DNA of 56,875 nucleotides from an uncultured Ardenticatenales bacterium (lineage in GTDB: Bacteria > Chloroflexota > Anaerolineae > Ardenticatenales > JAADHH01), in the NCBI GenBank assembly GCA_964508275.1, contig CAZDTE010000001.1, positions 26,941 through 83,815 on the forward strand, read 5' to 3'. The position numbers and the translations under genes were made by a program. The notes below the pieces were generated by a model that saw only the letters and a list, made by a program, of their open reading frames with translations, was not told the DNA's origin and made no database searches. The stretch's first letter is position 1. Each line of letters opens with the position of its first letter. Positions 26,906 to 36,078 of the stretch are shown here, one piece after another.

Positions 26906-29900
26906 TCAGCGCATCAACGCCGGTAGGTACACGTGCTCAGTCGCATAGCCGATCACGATGTCAACCGCAGCCTGCCCGCTCATGCCGTCGCTATCCGTCG
27001 CCGTCAGGGTGATGCGGTGGTGGCCGGTGGAGAGATTGTGCAGCGCCAGCTCTTCGCCCGTGCCGAGAGCGCCATCCCGATCGGACGTCCACTGTAAGGC
27101 GTTCCCGCGCAGCGTGCCCTCCTCCATGTCCAGCCCCACGCCCTCCAGGACAACCAGCTTGCCCGGCGCGGAGAATGTGCCATCCTGCGGGCTGGTGATC
27201 ACGGAGAGCGGCGCGGAGCCGGGCACGCTGAATACCGCATCGGAAACGTCCTCGCCGGTATTCACGCCGTCGCTGGCGATCACCTTGAGCAACGCCTGAT
27301 TGCTGCCCAGCATGTCGGCCAGGATGTTCTCGTCCACGGTGAGGCTCGTTTCTCCGGTGTCCAGCACCAGCGCGCGCCAGGTGGCTCCGGCGTCGGTGCT
27401 GTAGAGCAGCGTGTATAACAGGTCGTCGCCGTCCGCGTCGGAGCCGGTCCACTGCAACAGGCTGCCGATCTGCATCTGCTCGCCACCGTTGGGCGAAAGC
27501 AAGTGTACGGTGGGTGCGTGGGCGCTGACCTGCCGCTCGGCGATCACCGTCGGGCCGTGGCGAATCCGGAGCCATTGCGTGCCGGCCGGGAACGGAATGA
27601 CCGAAGCGAAGGACGTGATCAACGCACCGTTGTGAAAGTCCTCGTTGAAGGCAATGGTCTCGGTGTAGAGCGGGTGGCTGGCTGCGTCTTCCAACGTGAA
27701 CAGCCAGCCGGAGGCGGGCGGCGGTGCCTGTGCTCCGGCGAGCAGCGTTTGCACCCGCTCCTCCAGCTCCTGGGGCGGAGGCTGTGACAGGCGGTAGGCC
27801 GGGTCGAGCGTGGCGGTTTCCTGATTGGCGTTGGCCGTGCCGCCGGCGAGCAGGTATTCGGTCGCACTCTGCAACGCGGCCACGATGCGCAGCGCCTCGG
27901 TGGAGGGCCGGGTCACCCGGTTGTCGGCCGCCGCGCTCCACGTCAGGCTACACGTGATGCCGTACTCTTCCAGGAGGTTGCAGTACTCCCACGGCGAGAC
28001 CCAATTGGGCGACTCGTAGCCCATCAACGGGTAACCCAGATGCGGCTGGCTTTCACCGGGATCGTTGCTGATCACCTCTGGTTCGCTCAAGCCCCAACTG
28101 CTGTAATACACGTCGAGACCGTAATACCCCTCGGTGTCCACCACAGCCAGGCTGCAATCGGGATACGGCCAGGGGTAGCTGCTGTCCGTTGCGCCCCCTT
28201 CTTCCTCGTCGGGAGTGCCGTCCCCGTCGTCATCTGCGCAAGCCACATGCTGGAGGCCCTGATTGTGACCCAGTTCGTGGGCCATCGTCTCCGGTCCCCA
28301 GCCGTGCCAGGGCGAGGCGGTCCAGAAGTCGCTATCCATCGTGCCCAGGGCGACCCAGCCCGGCGTGTCGGCGAGCCCTCGTGCCGCGAACGTCTCGTGG
28401 ACCATGCCGTAGTAATGCATGTCACTGACCGGGTCGTTAGTCCACGTCCGCTTCCACTTCAAGCGATTCAAGATGGCGGACCGGTCGCTGTCATCGTTCG
28501 GGTCCCATTCCTTGTGGACTGGCCAACCGTGCCAGATCGGTTTGAGCGAGGTAGTGAATCGCCAGAGGTTCAGATCGGCGATAGGATGGAAACGCAGCAG
28601 GTCATCGTAGATCTCGTCACAGTCCGACTCGGTACACCAGTAGATGTGCGTCGATTTGTCACGGTCGGCGTCCTCGTGCAGGTGCAAGGGAACCATCGCC
28701 ATGTTCAGCGAATCGGTCGCCTCGAAGCTGACGTCCGTTTCGATCTCGTTGTCGTCCTTGTCGTACTCGGTCACGGCATCGTCGTAGTTGACCTCCGCGC
28801 GCAGCGTGACGTCGCCCGACCGCCAGTCGCTGGGCAGGTAGAACCAGAACGAGTCGTTCAGGTTGGTGCGGTCACCGCCGTCGGCCTGGATGGTGACCGG
28901 GTTGTTTTCCGCGTCGATGGGCGATCCGGAGAGGGAGGAGCCGCCTCGCGTGCCGTAGAGCCGGGCATTGACCCCGCCGACGGCTGTGCCGGTAGCCTGT
29001 TGCGCATAAACCCGCACGATCGTGCGCCGGTCCTCCACCAGCGGCATCTCGTTCGCCAGGTTCTGGGTGCCCTGGCTGACCTCCATACCGGTCACCTCGA
29101 AGTCGGGTGGCGCTGTCCAGAGGTAGTCTTCGGTCTCACCGTCGGCCCAGCCGCCGGCCGGCCCGCTGCCATCTGCGTTGCTGGCCGGACTCTCGCTCAG
29201 GCTGATGCGCACCCACATGTCCTTGTTATAATCGGCGTTGTACACCAGAAAGTAGGGCGTGGTGAAGGTGGCGTAGTGGCTGCCGAGCGTGATCACGTGA
29301 TTCTGCACAGCCCACTCGGAGAAGGGGCCGCCGCCACAGTTCATGCTGTCGCCCCACTCACCGTTGCGGTTGAAATCGAGCCAGACGTTGAGGTAGGCCT
29401 TGGTACCGTAGGCACTGCTATCGCGCACGGACACAGTGTAATCCATGTTGGTGTACTGGCAATCCGGAAAGGTATCCGGCAGTTGCAGGCCGTCATCCAT
29501 GCGGTCCTTGTCCGCGCCGGACTGGCCAATGTTGTTGATACCGTCCTCGTCGTAGCCCATGTCGGCTTCTTCCTCGCCGCTGATGCCCTCACCGAGATAG
29601 AAACGCAGGGGGTCGTTGTGGTGGATCGGGCCGTAGGGCGGCGAGCCGGTGCCGAAGACCGTCGGGAACTGGCCGATCACGCCGGAATAGGCGTCCATCG
29701 TGTCACCCAGGTTATTGCTGGAATCGGGGGCGTCGCCCAGGTCGGGGACCGGCGTGGGCGTGGCAGTGGGCGTGGGCGTGACAGTCGGGGTCGGCGTCAG
29801 CGTCGGCGAGGGCGTGTAGGTCGGCGTCACGGACGGCGTGGGGCTGTTCGGCACGCCGGCGATGTGGTAGTCCTCCGTCTCGCCGAAATCGAATCCGGTG

Positions 29901-31285
29901 GTCGGGCCGCTGCCGTTCCTGGCCTGGGGCACAGGCAACGGCTTCTCGCTGATCGTGATCCGCAGCCAGATGTCCTTTGTCGGATCGAAATTGTAAACGA
30001 GGAACGCGGGTGTGTAGAAGCTGTGATAGCTCGGCCCGGGCAAGGTGATCGCCTGATTCTGCACCGCCCACTCGGGTGCGTTCGTGCCACCGCAGGATGG
30101 AGTCTCGCCCCATTGCCCGTTGCGATCCCAGTCGGCCCAGACGTTGACGTAGGCGGTGGCCGGCGCGCCGGTGTAGACCCGCACGTTGTAGGCCATCGTG
30201 GTCGTATGGCAGTGGGGGAAGGACGGCGTGGCCCCCAGGCCATCGTCACCCAGGTCCTGGTCCGCGTGGTTCGCGACCGGATCGATGTTATGGACGCCGT
30301 CGGCGTCAACTCCCGCGTCCGCCTCTTCCTCGCGGGTGATGTTGTCCCCCAGGTGGAAGAGCAGCTTGGCGTTGTGGTGCAACGGGCCGTAGGGCGGCGA
30401 TCCGGCCGAGAACACGCTGGGGAAGTGGGCCGGAATGCCGGGGTAGGCGTTCATTCCCAGGCCGTGGCTGTTGCTGCTGTCGGGGGCGTCGCCCAGGTCG
30501 GGCAGGCCGGTTGGCGTTGGCTGGACTGTGCCGGTCGCCGATGGCGTCGGCGTGAGCGAAGCACCGGCTGTAGACGTTGGCGTTGGCGTGGAGGTGGCGC
30601 CGCCTGTAGACGTTGGCAGCGGCGTGAGCGTGGCGCTGGCCGTGAACGTCGGCCGTGGCGTGAACGTCGGCAGTTGCTCGTAGGCGATGATCAACTCCGG
30701 CACAGGCGTCACCTCTTTGGAGGCCAGGTAGACGCCGTAGCTCGCCTGGGCCGGGCCGACCAGCTTGAGGCCGTTGTTCGCGTCCACACCGCTGTACCAC
30801 TTCTGCACCTGGCCGGTCACGTCCCACGTGGCCCAGCCAACGCCCCCGACTGACGTGCTGCCGCCAATGGCCACGGAGGATGGTTGGGTGTTCCAGGTGA
30901 CAGTGGACTCGTTCCAGGAGCCGGTCACGCGGCGCAGGCTGACCGTCTGCGGCATGGTGCCGGAGGTGTCGCGCACGTAGATGCGCAGTGTGCCGGTGAG
31001 GATAGTCACACCGGCGGGCAGGCTGCTGAGGTCAAATTGCACGAGGCTGAGGTCTGCGCTGGCTCCGGCGCTGAAGCCGACGACCATTTGCTGGCCATTG
31101 TAGTTCGTCGTCGGAGCACCTTGGGAAATCCGCGCGTCTCCGGTGGCATACAGTTTGGTCTGGCTGGCCGGTCCAGTACCCTCGGCGAGCCGGCCGGCCA
31201 CCGGCTCGACATGGCGGGCGGCGACGATCACCAGCAGCGCGAAAACCCCCAGGATTGCCAGTCGCTCAAATGACCACGTCTTCAA
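26906..31285 (-). CDS. 1459-aa secreted multidomain protein: signal anchor, DNRLRE-type domain, two GEVED domains separated by Pro/Thr linkers, metzincin-type Zn protease (HELGHNQGLQH), and Asp-box/Ig-like C-terminal modules
   Basis: TTG start at 31285 with AGGAGG 7 nt upstream; the first in-frame ATG is codon 66, after the signal helix. DNRLRE-like: LYATGDARISQG...NYNG...LVQFDLSSLPAGVTILTGTLRIY...VTGSWNESTVTWNTQP. GEVED ends: FGETEDYHI and DGETEDYLW. HExxHxxGxxH lies at codons 1003-1013 (nt 28247-28279). Asp-box YSTDAGATW. Confidence 0.85.
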   Translation of the reverse strand: MKTWSFERLAILGVFALLVIVAARHVEPVAGRLAEGTGPASQTKLYATGDARISQGAPTTNYNGQQMVVGFSAGASADLSLVQFDLSSLPAGVTILTGTLRIYVRDTSGTMPQTVSLRRVTGSWNESTVTWNTQPSSVAIGGSTSVGGVGWATWDVTGQVQKWYSGVDANNGLKLVGPAQASYGVYLASKEVTPVPELIIAYEQLPTFTPRPTFTASATLTPLPTSTGGATSTPTPTSTAGASLTPTPSATGTVQPTPTGLPDLGDAPDSSNSHGLGMNAYPGIPAHFPSVFSAGSPPYGPLHHNAKLLFHLGDNITREEEADAGVDADGVHNIDPVANHADQDLGDDGLGATPSFPHCHTTTMAYNVRVYTGAPATAYVNVWADWDRNGQWGETPSCGGTNAPEWAVQNQAITLPGPSYHSFYTPAFLVYNFDPTKDIWLRITISEKPLPVPQARNGSGPTTGFDFGETEDYHIAGVPNSPTPSVTPTYTPSPTLTPTPTVTPTPTATPTPVPDLGDAPDSSNNLGDTMDAYSGVIGQFPTVFGTGSPPYGPIHHNDPLRFYLGEGISGEEEADMGYDEDGINNIGQSGADKDRMDDGLQLPDTFPDCQYTNMDYTVSVRDSSAYGTKAYLNVWLDFNRNGEWGDSMNCGGGPFSEWAVQNHVITLGSHYATFTTPYFLVYNADYNKDMWVRISLSESPASNADGSGPAGGWADGETEDYLWTAPPDFEVTGMEVSQGTQNLANEMPLVEDRRTIVRVYAQQATGTAVGGVNARLYGTRGGSSLSGSPIDAENNPVTIQADGGDRTNLNDSFWFYLPSDWRSGDVTLRAEVNYDDAVTEYDKDDNEIETDVSFEATDSLNMAMVPLHLHEDADRDKSTHIYWCTESDCDEIYDDLLRFHPIADLNLWRFTTSLKPIWHGWPVHKEWDPNDDSDRSAILNRLKWKRTWTNDPVSDMHYYGMVHETFAARGLADTPGWVALGTMDSDFWTASPWHGWGPETMAHELGHNQGLQHVACADDDGDGTPDEEEGGATDSSYPWPYPDCSLAVVDTEGYYGLDVYYSSWGLSEPEVISNDPGESQPHLGYPLMGYESPNWVSPWEYCNLLEEYGITCSLTWSAAADNRVTRPSTEALRIVAALQSATEYLLAGGTANANQETATLDPAYRLSQPPPQELEERVQTLLAGAQAPPPASGWLFTLEDAASHPLYTETIAFNEDFHNGALITSFASVIPFPAGTQWLRIRHGPTVIAERQVSAHAPTVHLLSPNGGEQMQIGSLLQWTGSDADGDDLLYTLLYSTDAGATWRALVLDTGETSLTVDENILADMLGSNQALLKVIASDGVNTGEDVSDAVFSVPGSAPLSVITSPQDGTFSAPGKLVVLEGVGLDMEEGTLRGNALQWTSDRDGALGTGEELALHNLSTGHHRITLTATDSDGMSGQAAVDIVIGYATEHVYLPALMR

Positions 31286-31812
31286 CCGACTCCCTCCTCT
31301 CCTTCGACGATGCGAATCTCCTCTGCGGCCAGGCCGTACAACTTGTACACCAGCGCATCAATCTGCGCATCCGTGGCCGCGATCTGGCGCTGGTAGAGGG
31401 TCTTCTCGGCCGGGATGGACGCGGCGGCCAGCTCTTCGAAGTCGGTGAGCACGCTCAGCGGCAGCCTGGCGCTCCAGGCATGGCGACGACGCTGGTAGGC
31501 CGGCCCGACGTCATCGCGGATGGAGACCGAGGGCTTCTTCACTTCCAGGAAGAACTTGCGCGTGCCACCGACGCGGAAACAGTAGTCCGGGGCGCGGGTG
31601 GCCCTGCCGACTTTGATGGTATCCTCGTGGACCACGTCCTTGTACTGCGCGGCTACGCCGCGCACGTTGCGCACGTCCCAGCCGAGGGCCTCGAAGAACG
31701 GGTCCACGAACTCGATGCGCACGCGCGTCTCTTTGTAGTCGGCGCGCTTGTAGACATCCAGATTGGGGCGGAAACGTTCGACCAGCTCAACGACGCCGGC
31801 GGGTGCGGACAT
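31282..31812 (-). pseudogene. Internally deleted remnant of a type IIG / Eco57I-like restriction-modification enzyme (N-terminal about 135 aa fused to C-terminal about 40 aa)
   Basis: MSAPAGVVELVERFRPNLDVYKRADYKETRVRIEFVDPFFEALGWDVRNVRGVAAQYKDVVHEDTIKVGRATRAPDYCFRVGGTRKFFLEVKKPSVSIRDDVGPAYQRRRHAWSARLPLSVLTDFEEL is joined directly to ...QIAATDAQIDALVYKLYGLAAEEIRIVEG. These match the two ends of enzymes normally about 1000 aa long, as I recall them. Confidence 0.7.
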
Positions 31813-31928
31813 TTGCTTCTCCCCTTGTGGAGGCCGCGAGCGGACAGAGTGTTCAAAAGCTCTGTCCGGTTTCACGTGCATGCAACAGATCGTGTGGAGA
31901 ACAACACGACATGCTGCGCAGCGCATCA

Positions 31929-31957
31929 ATGATACCACAGATCGTTGCCAAGTTCAA
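31929..31957 (-). promoter_or_regulatory. Promoter TTGAAC-N17-TATCAT with TG extension, upstream of the R-M remnant and the giant protease
   Basis: Minus strand: -35 at 31957..31952, 17-nt spacer ending in TGTGG, -10 at 31934..31929. The leader contains a 9-bp hairpin, CGGACAGAG/CTCTGTCCG. Confidence 0.5.
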
Positions 31958-32039: not shown

Positions 32040-32130
32040 CCCTCATCCCCCCGCTTGCTTGAGGAGAAGGGGGCGAAATGGCCTAATCGGGCCCCTCCCC
32101 CGCCGCGGGGGAGGGGCTACGGGGGGGGGG
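32040..32130. repeat. G/C-tract hairpin repeat cluster (includes an 11-bp perfect stem, CCCCTCCCCCG/CGGGGGAGGGG, at 32092-32116)
   Basis: Direct reading. Composition and Cn-loop-Gn organisation resemble those at 1-118, 6726-6868 and 34526-34562. Confidence 0.7.
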
Positions 32131-32370
32131 GTGATCTTCCGTGACATTAGGAGGCGCGTTTTTCCTGCGCACCCATTATCCACCGAATTGTATACACAAC
32201 CTCTCTCGGAAGGCAATCCCAGAGCCTGTTTCGATGGCAACGCACCGTAAGGGGGCTAACTCCTGTAGGCCAATTGAGGTTGGTGGAGGGAATGCCTTGC
32301 CCCTACTGAACGCTCGCGAACCTGCACAGCACGTAAGATGCTGGCCGCCGGCAGCGTCGAAAGACCAACA

Positions 32371-32403
32371 GTGACCGTCACCTTACGGTGACCGTCACCT
32401 TAC
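32371..32403. promoter_or_regulatory. Two tandem copies (17-bp period) of GTGACCGTCACCTTAC, each containing the palindrome GTGAC-C-GTCAC
   Basis: Copies at 32371-32386 and 32388-32403 are identical. They lie about 240 nt upstream of the first gene of the membrane-protein trio. Confidence 0.5.
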
Positions 32404-32639: not shown

Positions 32640-33323
32640 ATGCAGAAAATGATTGTAAAGATGGCTAAGATGTATCCCGTGATGATCGTGATGGGTTTCA
32701 TGATCGTGCTGATCGCTTTCGTCGTCGGGTATTTCAACTCGCAGACCGCGGCGGCCTACTTCGGAGAGGCCAAGGCGCTACGCGAAACCACGTTGATGGC
32801 CCAGCGGGCTTCGATCGAAAGCATCGGGCTCTGGCTACCGCCCTTCAAGTTCCTGGGCATCGGCCTGATCCTCGGCGGCATCGTCATGGCCCTGCGGATC
32901 ATCATTGACAACCTGAAAGCCGCCGGCGTGGAAGTACTGTCCAACGTTCCGGCGGAGAAGCGCCCGCAAATGCCGGCCACACCCTGGTACGCATCGCTGA
33001 TGCCGGCCGTTATGATGCTGGGCGAGGTGGTATTCCTGGTCGCATTCGGCGTCGGCGTATGGCTGTCCGGGCTTGCCCGCACGGTCTTTGCCAACCCGCT
33101 ACCGACCATTGACGCTGCCGGGGCCGGCTCGGCCCTGCTGGCCAACCTGCAAACGATCCATGCGGTCGAAGGCTGGCTGGTGCCGCTCAAGTTCTTTGGC
33201 ATAGCGACCGAGTTCCTGGCCATCACCATGGGCCTGGCAACGATCATCTACATCCTCAACGCGCAGACCAACATGTTGGACCGTGGCTTCCGAGCCGCCA
33301 AGTCCGGCCAGGCTGCCAGTTGA
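32640..33323 (+). CDS. Membrane protein, two copies of an approximately 110-aa two-helix module (paralog 1 of 3); family unknown
   Basis: GGAGG lies 6 nt before ATG 32640; the ORF-track start at 32388 sits inside the operator-like repeat. Module motifs: AAAYFGEAKALRE...WLPPFKFLGIGLILGGIVMAL and GSALLANLQTIHAVEGWLVPLKFFGIATEFLAITMGL. Confidence 0.75.
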   Translation: MQKMIVKMAKMYPVMIVMGFMIVLIAFVVGYFNSQTAAAYFGEAKALRETTLMAQRASIESIGLWLPPFKFLGIGLILGGIVMALRIIIDNLKAAGVEVLSNVPAEKRPQMPATPWYASLMPAVMMLGEVVFLVAFGVGVWLSGLARTVFANPLPTIDAAGAGSALLANLQTIHAVEGWLVPLKFFGIATEFLAITMGLATIIYILNAQTNMLDRGFRAAKSGQAAS

Positions 33324-33341
33324 GGGAAAAGGAGTTTTCTG

Positions 33342-33710
33342 ATGAGTAAAATCAAAGCGCCGGACACAGCCTGGCAAATGAAACTGTTTCCTGTGCTGAC
33401 CTTGCTGGGTTGGGTCCTGATTGGTACGTCGTTCGTGATTGGACTGTTTGTCCTGACCCCCACGGCCGCCAGCTACTGGGGCGGCAACGCCAAAGCCGCC
33501 CGCGACGCGGCCGTAGCCGGTTCCGTCCTGCTGGGGCAACAGGGAACGTTGACTACCATCCCGCGATGGTTAGTGCCGCTCACGTTCCTGGGCGCGGCCT
33601 CCTTCATCGTGGGCATCGCCCTGGAGTTCTCCAGCATCCCGGCGTTGCTCAAGAACCGGGGTCAGGTGATGAGCGCTTGCTTCCCGTACATCGCGAAGCA
33701 GGACTCGTGA
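33342..33710 (+). CDS. Membrane protein, a single copy of the same module (paralog 2 of 3)
   Basis: AAAGGAG RBS. AASYWGGNAKAARDAAVAGS...RWLVPLTFLGAASFIVGIAL aligns with the first module of the flanking genes. Confidence 0.75.
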   Translation: MSKIKAPDTAWQMKLFPVLTLLGWVLIGTSFVIGLFVLTPTAASYWGGNAKAARDAAVAGSVLLGQQGTLTTIPRWLVPLTFLGAASFIVGIALEFSSIPALLKNRGQVMSACFPYIAKQDS

Positions 33711-33726
33711 TAAAGGAGAGACTACC

Positions 33727-34500
33727 GTGAAGGAAAAATCGCCGTTTCCGTTCAGTATGATCGAAAAAATGATGCCGCTGTTTCCCACTATCGCCGTGAT
33801 GGGTTGGCTGATCGTGCTGGCATCGTTTCTGGTCGGCTTCTTCATCTTCAGCCCCGCCCAGGCGACCTTCTTCGCGGACGCCAAAGCCGTCCGCGAGGGG
33901 GCCGTAGCTGGCAGCACCTTTGTACAGGCCAACACCACGATCCACGTCACCAAAGCCTGGCTGCCGCAGTTCAAGTTCTTTGGGCTCGGTTTGGGGCTGC
34001 TGGCGATCACCATGGCCTTGGGCATCATCGCCAAACGGCTACGCCACATGGGCCAGGTGATCACCGGGCACATTCCGGCTCACGCCCGCCCAACCATGCC
34101 CGCCCCGCCAAAGCTGGTACGCGTGTTCCAGTCCAGCGCCATGATGGGCGTCATGGTCCTGCTGGCGGCGCTCATCATCGGCACCGTTTTGGCGACCGGC
34201 GTGGTTCCGGCCTACTGGAGCCATTCCATAGCCAGCGAGCTGAACGCGGCTCAACCGGGCTCGGCACTGCTGGCCCAATTGGGCGTCGTGAGCAGCTTCG
34301 CGTGGTGGCTCAACCCGCTGCGCATGGTTGGCATGGCCTTCCTGTTCACGGCCATCACGCTCGCCCTGGTCGTGATCATCGGCACCCTGCGTTTGCAGGC
34401 CACCTTGCTGGTCAAGTACTACCGGGGCGTCACCGGCGAACAAGAGCCGGTGATCACCGGCACCACCACCCGCGAACCGGAATACGTTCCGACCGGGTAA
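33727..34500 (+). CDS. Membrane protein, two copies of the module (paralog 3 of 3)
   Basis: GTG start with AAGGAGAG 6 nt upstream. QATFFADAKAVREGAVAGS...AWLPQFKFFGLGLGLLAITMAL and GSALLAQLGVVSSFAWWLNPLRMVGMAFLFTAITLAL. The inter-module hinge PAHARPTMPAPP matches PAEKRPQMPATP in paralog 1. Confidence 0.75.
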   Translation: MKEKSPFPFSMIEKMMPLFPTIAVMGWLIVLASFLVGFFIFSPAQATFFADAKAVREGAVAGSTFVQANTTIHVTKAWLPQFKFFGLGLGLLAITMALGIIAKRLRHMGQVITGHIPAHARPTMPAPPKLVRVFQSSAMMGVMVLLAALIIGTVLATGVVPAYWSHSIASELNAAQPGSALLAQLGVVSSFAWWLNPLRMVGMAFLFTAITLALVVIIGTLRLQATLLVKYYRGVTGEQEPVITGTTTREPEYVPTG

Positions 34501-34525: not shown

Positions 34526-34562
34526 CCCCTCCCCGTGGTTCCTCCTCCGCCACGGGGAGGGG
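34526..34562 (+). repeat. 13-bp perfect G/C hairpin (CCCCTCCCCGTGG/CCACGGGGAGGGG) 26 nt after the trio; possible terminator without a U-tract
   Basis: Arms at 34526-34538 and 34550-34562 with an 11-nt loop. It belongs to the same CCCCTCCCC/GGGGAGGGG hairpin class as 32092-32116. Confidence 0.6.
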
Positions 34563-35307: not shown

Positions 35308-36078
35308 ATGGCGACGTTCCTGGAACGGGTAACCGAATGTGAACACCAGGCCTACCGGATCTTGGAAGCGGGCATCTTGAGCACGCGACTCGAACGGGAG
35401 CGCGGGGTTGCGCTGCTTACCTGCCCAGGCCTGCCCGGCCCGCGATTCAACCACCTGGCGTTGATCCGCGTGCCGGCGGCCGACGACGCGGCCACCGTGG
35501 CGCTGGCCCGGCGCAAGCTGGCCGGCACCGGCATAAGCCCGCCGGCGCTGGCGCTCTCGCCGGCCAGCTTCCCGCCCACGCTTGCCGCTCTCGCGCCGGG
35601 GGCAGGGATGAAGCCTTGGTTAACCGAGAGCTGGCTGGTGTTTGAACGGGATTCCTTGGCCACGCTCGGCCCCATGTCCGCCGGACGGCCCGTTTCGCGG
35701 GCCTCCAGCCGCGGCCACGTCAGGGCGGGGCTGGGGCTACTAACCGGCCAGGCCCCGGCAGAAAGCGCACCGCAAAACGACGAACTTGAGAGTTTGCTAT
35801 GGCTGGCTTCGCTGCAAGATGGCGCGGAACTGGCGGCTCTGATTGTCGCTTGGAAAGAAGACGCCGTCGTGTACGTGGGAGGACAGCACGCTCACACTTC
35901 GGCGGCCTATCAGGGCATCGCTCGCGATGTCCTGCACCGTCAACCCGATCTGGCCAGGCTGACACTTGTCATCCCGGGGCCGGACATCGCCGCGCCTCAA
36001 GCGGTGCCGCCACTCCCGGCGGGCGCCTGGGCTTTTCGGCGCACGATCTTTGCGAAACAGGAGGGAGATGGGGAATGA
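35308..36078 (+). CDS. Hypothetical protein (possibly GNAT-like, not established)
   Basis: 256-aa ORF tightly packed between the MTase (a 4-nt gap) and coaD (ATGA overlap). I see no motif I can name with confidence. Confidence 0.55.
   Translation: MATFLERVTECEHQAYRILEAGILSTRLERERGVALLTCPGLPGPRFNHLALIRVPAADDAATVALARRKLAGTGISPPALALSPASFPPTLAALAPGAGMKPWLTESWLVFERDSLATLGPMSAGRPVSRASSRGHVRAGLGLLTGQAPAESAPQNDELESLLWLASLQDGAELAALIVAWKEDAVVYVGGQHAHTSAAYQGIARDVLHRQPDLARLTLVIPGPDIAAPQAVPPLPAGAWAFRRTIFAKQEGDGE

Follow-up and report, generated by a model that had tools for sequence, protein, structure and literature searches.

What do three neighboring genes encode when none of their products resembles a named membrane protein, and do those products work together? 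The question is raised by a locus in a 56,875-nucleotide stretch of DNA from an uncultured Ardenticatenales bacterium (Chloroflexota; GenBank assembly GCA_964508275.1, contig CAZDTE010000001.1), which was analyzed at its full length and is referred to below as the window. Three open reading frames (ORFs) lie in tandem there on the + strand: g1 (32640-33323; 227 amino acids, or aa), g2 (33342-33710; 122 aa), and g3 (33727-34500; 257 aa, with a GTG start). We found that these genes (the trio) belong to an undescribed family built from five copies of one helical-hairpin unit, that their products very probably form a single membrane complex, and that the operon is preceded by a motif of the type read by extracytoplasmic function (ECF) sigma factors, which points to a possible role in an envelope stress response.

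The genes are closely packed, with 18 nt between g1 and g2 and 16 nt between g2 and g3, and every start codon follows a Shine-Dalgarno sequence at a distance of 6 to 8 nt: GGAGG at 32629-33 (6 nt 5′ of the g1 ATG at 32640), AAGGAG at 33329-34 in front of g2, and AAGGAG at 33713-18, 5′ of the g3 GTG at 33727. An initial annotation, made from the sequence of the window by itself, had described three tightly spaced genes at these coordinates, each with its own ribosome-binding site, and both the ORFs and the sites were found as described. A longer frame is available for g1 (311 aa from a GTG at 32388). Because the g1 orthologs all begin at a conserved MQ(K/Q)xIGKMA(R/K)MYP, each with its own GGAGG in front, we take 32640 to be the true start.

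All three products are made of the same unit. Cutting g1 and g3 at their Pro-rich hinges gave five pieces of about 110 aa (g1N, g1C, g2, g3N, and g3C), all of which matched each other by BLASTP (E = 6e-8 to 1e-27; 24 to 43% identity). Hydropathy placed two transmembrane (TM) helices in each unit, amounting to four in g1, two in g2, and four in g3. These comparisons uphold the earlier proposal of homologous products carrying a two-helix module in a 2 + 1 + 2 arrangement. The unit motifs A-K-A-x-R-E/D and W-L-x-P-x-K-F-x-G and the hinges PAEKRPQMPATP and PAHARPTMPAPP, to which the initial annotation had drawn attention, are likewise present and conserved.

Conservation within the family is high, with at least 85% identity at 46 to 52% of positions across about 110 orthologs. 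When the whole superfamily is considered, the conservation peak covers the segment that connects the two helices, which we refer to as the cap, and the start of the second TM helix (TM2): Y-x4-K-A-x-R-D-A-A-x-A-G-S-x-L-L ... W-L-x-P-x-x-F-x-G. The TM2 helices carry Gly/Ala-rich packing motifs, and charged residues are conserved at their inner ends (E95 of g2 and R86 of g1). In g1, T190-E191 is conserved midway along TM4, some 13 residues inward of the Trp at the outer interface. Methionine makes up 6.6% of g1 and 5.1% of g3, compared with 1.9% of the remaining long ORFs in the window, and conservation extends to many Met positions; g2 is not Met-rich. The initial annotation had seen no conserved His/Cys cofactor signature. 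This holds insofar as there is no recognizable cofactor motif, but three His residues of g3 are conserved (H73 and H166 in the predicted outer caps and H115 in the linker), and C114 of g2, the Cys of a C-F-P motif, is mostly conserved.

Structure prediction with AlphaFold2 gave confident models for the window g1 (alignment A4; predicted local distance difference test [pLDDT] score of 90.7; predicted template modeling [pTM] score of 0.81) and for P0009, a natural fusion of g2 and g3 (alignment A5; pLDDT of 90.7; pTM of 0.86), in which the three hairpins pack together. Each modeled unit is a hairpin of two long helices (approximately 30 to 47 and 48 to 62 residues) joined by a segment that includes a short helix. 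According to these models, the Ala-rich amphipathic stretch that the initial annotation had listed as an element of the unit therefore largely represents the TM helices extended past the bilayer. Lys and Arg residues are distributed unevenly, with 28 on the side of the N termini, linkers, and C termini and 9 on the side of the cap. From this asymmetry we infer a topology in which all termini would be cytoplasmic and the conserved cap would lie outside.

Neither the sequences nor the models led to a known family. Pfam had no match for g1 at E values up to 1; the best hit for g2 was DUF6755 (E = 0.1; 13 bits against a cutoff of 27) and that for g3 was DUF4234 (E = 0.44). NCBIfam contained no match for any of the three, the PADLOC models of anti-phage defense did not match the trio, and PHROGs yielded only matches of E = 0.002 to 0.004 to short membrane-protein profiles, which are not usable. 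Running Pfam on 68 divergent superfamily members revealed no consistent family and a single receiver domain. Searches of PDB sequences, both by phmmer and with a unit profile, returned nothing meaningful. Comparison of the models to 350,542 PDB chains using Foldseek gave best E values of 0.23 for the g2+g3 fusion and 0.14 for g1, with TM-scores of at most 0.38; the weak neighbors were generic long-helix proteins, TM domains of ABC exporters, and V-ATPase proteolipids. The earlier impression that the proteins belong to no nameable family thus withstood searches by family profile, PDB sequence, and PDB fold, none of which gave a significant match. Judged against Pfam, NCBIfam, PADLOC, PHROGs, and the PDB, the trio is an undescribed family and fold.

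The distribution of the genes bears on whether their products act together. A scan of 185,579 species, each represented by one genome, identified 36 loci, all of them in metagenome-assembled genomes of Anaerolineae/Chloroflexota except for one 2.6-kb contig binned elsewhere. Homologs number 331 for g1, 192 for g2, and 298 for g3, and every one is unnamed or labeled "hypothetical"; the homologs of each gene share 60 to 80% identity, and the named sources are Chloroflexi, Anaerolineae, or Anaerolineales. Beyond the orthologs, a profile of the unit recovered just 290 clusters at E ≤ 1e-3 from 1.84 billion cluster representatives. Among the approximately 40 Anaerolineae/Chloroflexota loci, the order g1-g2-g3 on a single strand, as it appears in the window, recurs in every locus that is sufficiently long. 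All three genes are under purifying selection, with ratios of nonsynonymous to synonymous substitution rates (dN/dS) of 0.08 to 0.2 for unsaturated ortholog pairs. The initial annotation had held that its claim would fall if a characterized family gave a confident profile match, or if the genes never co-occurred in other genomes and lacked purifying selection; neither was observed.

The boundaries between the chains are less rigid than their order. In-frame fusions of g2 to g3 through a short linker occur in L003, L004, and L014 and in nine 50 to 90%-identity protein clusters, and in L015 g1 is divided into two ORFs. A distantly related 584-aa chain, P0456, comprises five units that are roughly collinear with g1N-g1C-g2-g3N-g3C. 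Because of the natural g2+g3 fusions and the five-unit single chain, we consider that the products of the trio very probably form one assembly of 10 helices. The hetero-oligomeric assembly envisaged in the initial annotation is strongly suggested by the same two observations, and we hold physical association of the g1, g2, and g3 products with considerable confidence.

Several related loci deserve mention in their own right. The gene for P0456 lies on a contig of 46% GC between GH63/MGH1-like, GH15, and glycogen-debranching genes (L041:785-8456), and directly 5′ of it is a gene for a 162-aa, extremely Met-rich protein without a family match. At L046:5001-6736, a response-regulator receiver domain is fused to one unit (P0467) and is followed by a 288-aa two-unit protein, which makes this locus a 1 + 2-unit variant with a phospho-acceptor input. 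Because L046 carries 1 + 2 units, five units are typical of the core clade and not universal in the superfamily. L018:4301-11876 contains two inverted modules, each consisting of a CcdA gene and a trio, that are 100% identical over 2,277 nt; this may be a very recent inverted duplication or an assembly artifact, and the locus was left out as evidence.

How might the operon be controlled? An exact match to the ECF sigma-type promoter motif GTAAGA-N16-CGTC is located on the + strand at 32333-32358, 307 nt 5′ of g1. It is the sole exact match on either strand of the 56.9-kb window, against an expectation of 0.01. In 19 of 32 orthologous loci, the motif is found 5′ of g1 in the form GTAAG(A/G/C)-N15-17-CGTC, 116 to 387 nt ahead of its start codon. 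Of the 66 motif sites in the loci, 49 are located no more than 450 nt 5′ of the trio or of redox or anti-sigma-like genes: 21 precede the trio, 12 an anti-sigma-like gene, 5 each a CcdA and a DUF3179 gene, 4 a DoxX gene, and 2 a thioredoxin gene. An ECF-type promoter motif is thus common to the trio and to the sigma/anti-sigma locus, as is expected of an ECF regulon. The motif in front of the anti-sigma-like gene often ends just 4 to 25 nt from the start codon, suggesting that the transcript has a very short leader or none and arises from an internal promoter located between the two genes of the sigma/anti-sigma pair.

In the window, transcription is predicted to start near 32365, leaving a leader of about 275 nt. 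The leader shares the promoter motif alone with the other loci, the rest not being conserved, and Rfam had no match between 31000 and 35500; on both grounds, a conserved leader RNA was rejected. Short ORFs of 42 to 47 aa located 5′ of g1 in L002 and L003 were also discarded as parts of the system, as they are not conserved between the two loci and have no counterpart in the window.

Clustering of the neighboring genes across the approximately 40 loci indicated which functions accompany the trio. The immediate neighbors vary widely from locus to locus. Nevertheless, 20 loci have an ECF sigma gene (TIGR02937; E = 4e-22) some 1.6 kb upstream, on the same strand, and it adjoins a gene for a soluble protein of 78 to 84 aa with the motif H-x3-C-x2-C (L002:6068-6304, L003:6143-6382, L028:4647-4901, and others). 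The other recurring partners are DoxX/DoxD (16 loci), DUF3179 immediately 3′ of g3 (8 loci), thioredoxin (7 loci), and CcdA/DsbD_TM (5 loci). DUF3179 genes after g3 have an in-frame TGA in the context W-U-P-I-C-Y-T-G, the frame continuing for about 215 codons, and an ECF-type motif in front; genes with this TGA are found at L002:10110-11063, L020:11998-13176, and L028:7266-8444 and in L027, L033, and L040. Their product is probably a selenocysteine-containing U-x-x-C redox protein, and DUF3179 has already been listed as a UxxC/T selenoprotein family (PMC9312934). SigR/RsrA, the SigE of Neisseria, and RpoE2/HrsE of Haemophilus influenzae control repair genes for oxidative damage to the envelope, including DoxX clusters (PMC7907618). 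The initial annotation had viewed the trio as a self-contained unit. That view holds only in part, since in about half of the loci the trio adjoins an ECF sigma/anti-sigma pair and the promoter motif is common to the trio and thiol-redox genes.

Collectively, these data lead us to propose that g1, g2, and g3 would be co-transcribed and that their products would assemble as one integral-membrane hetero-complex of five homologous helical hairpins, with 10 TM helices and all termini in the cytoplasm. The Ala-rich helical cap that is conserved in each hairpin (Y-x4-K-A-x-R-D/E ... G-S-x-L-L ... W-L-x-P-x-K-F-x-G) would lie at the outer side of the membrane, and the complex would probably act in the membrane or on that side. 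The operon would be read from the promoter GTAAGA-N16-CGTC; in related genomes, a like promoter would drive the Cys/His anti-sigma-like protein, thiol-reductant transporters of the CcdA/DsbD type, DoxX, thioredoxin, and the DUF3179 selenoprotein. Because this promoter type is common to the trio and thiol-redox genes, the complex is most likely an inducible part of the response of the envelope to thiol or oxidative stress. The steps of this proposal differ in strength. ECF control, as suggested by the promoter motif, seems probable, and for a role in stress the balance is about even. The composite claim, namely, one 10-helix complex that is an inducible component of an envelope thiol/oxidative-stress response, strikes us as being just as evenly poised.

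A number of observations weigh against this proposal. Because the trio lacks an invariant Cys, it cannot be a thiol relay in its own right. The promoter is recognized from a sequence motif, the exact form of which is absent 5′ of g1 in 13 of the 32 loci. The window has no gene for an ECF sigma factor, an anti-sigma factor, DoxX, CcdA, or DUF3179, so that regulation here would act in trans. The H-x3-C-x2-C protein matches RsrA weakly (E = 0.002) and zf-HC2 weakly, in both cases below the curated cutoffs. Other contexts also occur, with glycoside hydrolases in L021 and L041 and, in L042/L043, a two-component system together with an ABC transporter of the MacB type. Finally, guilt by association is silent on activity. 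As candidates for that activity we consider, in order of preference, a pseudo-pentameric conducting assembly, a scaffold or partner for extracytoplasmic redox proteins, a Met/His-based sink for metal or oxidants, and a transporter of sugars or osmolytes.

The first of these candidates is also the most developed alternative. The five hairpins may be arranged as a pseudo-pentameric ring through which ions or small solutes pass, making the complex a channel or an ion-coupled machine, with the small residues of the TM2 helices (G-x-G-x-x-x-x-G) lining the center and the buried E191 of g1 conducting or coupling. The count of five units, found in the trio and in the single-chain P0456 alike, would suit such a ring, as would the conserved T190-E191 in TM4, the conserved charged residues where TM2 ends on the inner side (E95 of g2 and R86 of g1), and the Gly/Ala-rich packing motifs of TM2; the receiver domain fused to one unit in L046 suggests a gated output module, and V-ATPase proteolipids, at non-significant scores, are the only recurring fold neighbors of g1. 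However, all Foldseek matches have E values above 0.1, E191 is not conserved in the P0456 or L046 relatives, the superfamily is best conserved in the extracytoplasmic cap and not in the membrane core, a comparison with MscL was negative, and genes for a partner "axle" or an ATPase are not conserved nearby. We therefore regard the ring as a tentative idea, on balance unlikely. It could coexist with the stress-regulon proposal, being compatible with it. Equally doubtful is the extended form of the idea, in which the trio would be the founding example of an ECF-deployed, heteromeric, pseudo-pentameric machine or channel, built from five covalently or genetically linked hairpins with a fold absent from the PDB, that protects or repairs the envelope of Anaerolineae under thiol/oxidative stress and conducts ions or solutes by way of the buried g1 Glu. 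The Met and His residues raise the prospect of a complex that handles a metal such as Cu(I) or scavenges oxidants through its conserved Met and the extracytoplasmic His of g3. We consider this improbable. Met is enriched in g1 and g3 at many conserved positions, H73 and H166 of g3 fall in its predicted outer caps, the Met-rich 162-aa protein is encoded beside the five-unit relative in L041, a Metal_resist/LTXXQ protein is encoded upstream in L043, and the thiol-redox genes under the same motif would suit disulfide stress induced by copper or oxidants. Set against these points, there is no canonical MxxxM, CxxC, or HxxH motif; genes for a copper ATPase, CopZ, and CsoR are not conserved nearby; msrA, msrB, and msrPQ were not found in the neighborhoods; g2 is not Met-rich; and enrichment of Met is common in TM helices and N termini.

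Gene context in a few loci suggests that the complex might transport sugars or compatible solutes or act as a valve for their release, with trehalose, glucosyl- or mannosyl-glycerate, and glucans derived from glycogen as examples. The five-unit gene of L041 lies amid GH63/MGH1-like, GH15, and glycogen-debranching genes; g3 of L021 is directly followed by a GH15 gene with an ECF-type motif in front; and L022 has a GDE homolog. This association is nonetheless confined to 3 of about 43 loci, the window has no neighbors of the glycoside-hydrolase type, and no known sugar transporter resembles the trio in sequence or fold searches, which leaves the idea very unlikely indeed. The null explanation is that the genes encode ordinary paralogs that act independently in the membrane or, in filamentous Anaerolineae, a constitutive structural part of the envelope, and that the motif is coincidental. 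The widely varying neighborhoods and the absence of a sigma/anti-sigma pair from the window would fit it. It is hard to reconcile, however, with the strict co-occurrence and fixed order of the genes, the g2+g3 and five-in-one fusions, the conservation of each paralog at 60 to 80% identity with every unit scoring highest against its own ortholog profile, and a motif frequency far above chance, and we think it has little chance of being correct. An inducible hetero-complex of the envelope thiol/oxidative-stress response remains the explanation that we favor.

The flanks of the operon hold further elements. Directly 3′ of the predicted transcription start, at 32368-32401, a 17-nt sequence is repeated in tandem (ACAGTGACCGTCACCTT / ACGGTGACCGTCACCTT), with the palindrome GTGACCGTCAC in both copies and a predicted RNA fold of -17.4 kcal/mol (z = -3.75). 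This is the operator-like repeat of the initial annotation. The repeat is real, but it is absent from all 43 related loci (0/43), and the conserved element of the region is the ECF-type motif at 32333-32358. Near matches with up to two mismatches occur elsewhere in the window at chance level. The repeat may be a local operator or leader hairpin specific to this window or strain. Downstream, the strong hairpin noted at the outset was recovered at 34526-34562 on the + strand, 26 nt after the g3 stop codon. It is G+C-rich, with 13-nt arms of 100% complementarity, a stem of 13 to 14 bp, and no U-tract, and the 96-nt region around it folds at -43.7 kcal/mol (z = -3.4). A terminator scan passed over this hairpin because it has no T-run; it probably marks the transcript end or acts as a stabilizer. 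A similar element occurs between genes at 32091-32117, 5′ of the promoter: a perfect palindrome of 13 bp, rich in G/C (GCCCCTCCCCCGC G GCGGGGGAGGGGC), whose sequence is like that of the hairpin that follows g3 (CCCCTCCCCGTGG...). This palindrome may be a repeated element of the repetitive extragenic palindromic (REP) kind or a bidirectional terminator.

The genes around the trio in the window are unrelated to it and include an HsdR_N fragment, a SAM methyltransferase, a CoaD-like gene, a HAD hydrolase, and a two-component system. The fragment is a 218-aa ORF on the - strand (31282-31938) that matches the N-terminal HSDR_N domain of type I restriction enzymes alone and is probably a gene fragment. 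Next to it, also on the - strand, 26906-31285 encodes a secreted-looking protein of 1,459 aa with Pro/Thr-rich linkers, duplicated domains, and an HExxH-like metalloprotease motif, HELGH. On the + strand, a 256-aa ORF without a Pfam match (35308-36078) is situated between the SAM methyltransferase and the CoaD-like gene.

The trio is confined to one poorly cultured bacterial class, being found almost only in the Anaerolineae, which are abundant in sediments, the subsurface, and wastewater and of which few are in culture. Its 2 + 1 + 2 units, together with the 1 + 2 and five-in-one fusions, provide an unusually clear genetic argument for subunit assembly. The link to ECF and redox genes yields a concrete hypothesis, namely, induction by disulfide, oxidant, or metal stress, and the motif and partner genes define a candidate envelope-redox regulon of Chloroflexota. 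Should the complex prove to be a channel or transporter, a new membrane fold would be added.

The regulatory setting of the trio has known parallels in SigR-RsrA, SigE-MseR of Neisseria, and RpoE2-HrsE of H. influenzae. As in those systems, an ECF sigma factor is paired with a small soluble H-x3-C-x2-C partner, and DoxX would be co-regulated with thiol- or methionine-repair functions of the envelope (PMC7907618). The trio differs in having GTAAGA and not GGAAT as its predicted -35 element, and it is not a described member of SigR-type regulons.

With regard to architecture, the unit in its predicted topology recalls MscL, which is also about 120 to 140 aa long, keeps both termini inside, and has two TM helices joined by an extracytoplasmic loop as well as a helix that extends into the cytoplasm; as a set of five, it too reaches 10 TM helices. 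MscL is a homopentamer of a single subunit and gates under membrane tension, whereas the assembly of the trio would be heteromeric, with covalently linked units spread over three chains. Homology to MscL was rejected: hhalign of the unit profile against Escherichia coli MscL gave a probability of 0.1% and E = 0.55, and PF01741 had no match. Two other systems are architectural analogies only, with no homology to the trio. The proteolipids of V/A-type ATPases (c, c′, and c″) likewise have duplicated hairpin modules, paralogous chains in a hetero-oligomer, as proposed for the trio, and a carboxylate buried in a TM helix, and, alone among membrane proteins, they recur in the weak Foldseek matches to g1 (6vq6_b and 6m0r_C; TM-scores of 0.34 to 0.38). 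These matches are non-significant (E ≥ 0.3) and come without sequence similarity; moreover, the proteolipid loop is short and cytoplasmic, whereas that of the trio is long, conserved, and predicted to face outward. PF00137 (ATP-synt_C) did not match the trio, and no ATPase genes lie near the trio in the window or in the approximately 40 loci. The second analogy is to FliP/FliQ/FliR (SctR/S/T). No match to PF00813, PF01313, or PF01311 was obtained even at E values up to 1, Foldseek found no match to solved export gates, and no flagellar or type III secretion genes lie near the trio in the window or in the approximately 40 loci. The likeness lies in the design: three adjacent genes of similar sizes encode helical-hairpin products, with 2 + 1 + 3 hairpins in FliP/FliQ/FliR, that form one pseudo-symmetric assembly, which for the trio is our proposal. 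In the trio, in contrast to FliP/FliQ/FliR, all five hairpins are homologous by sequence.

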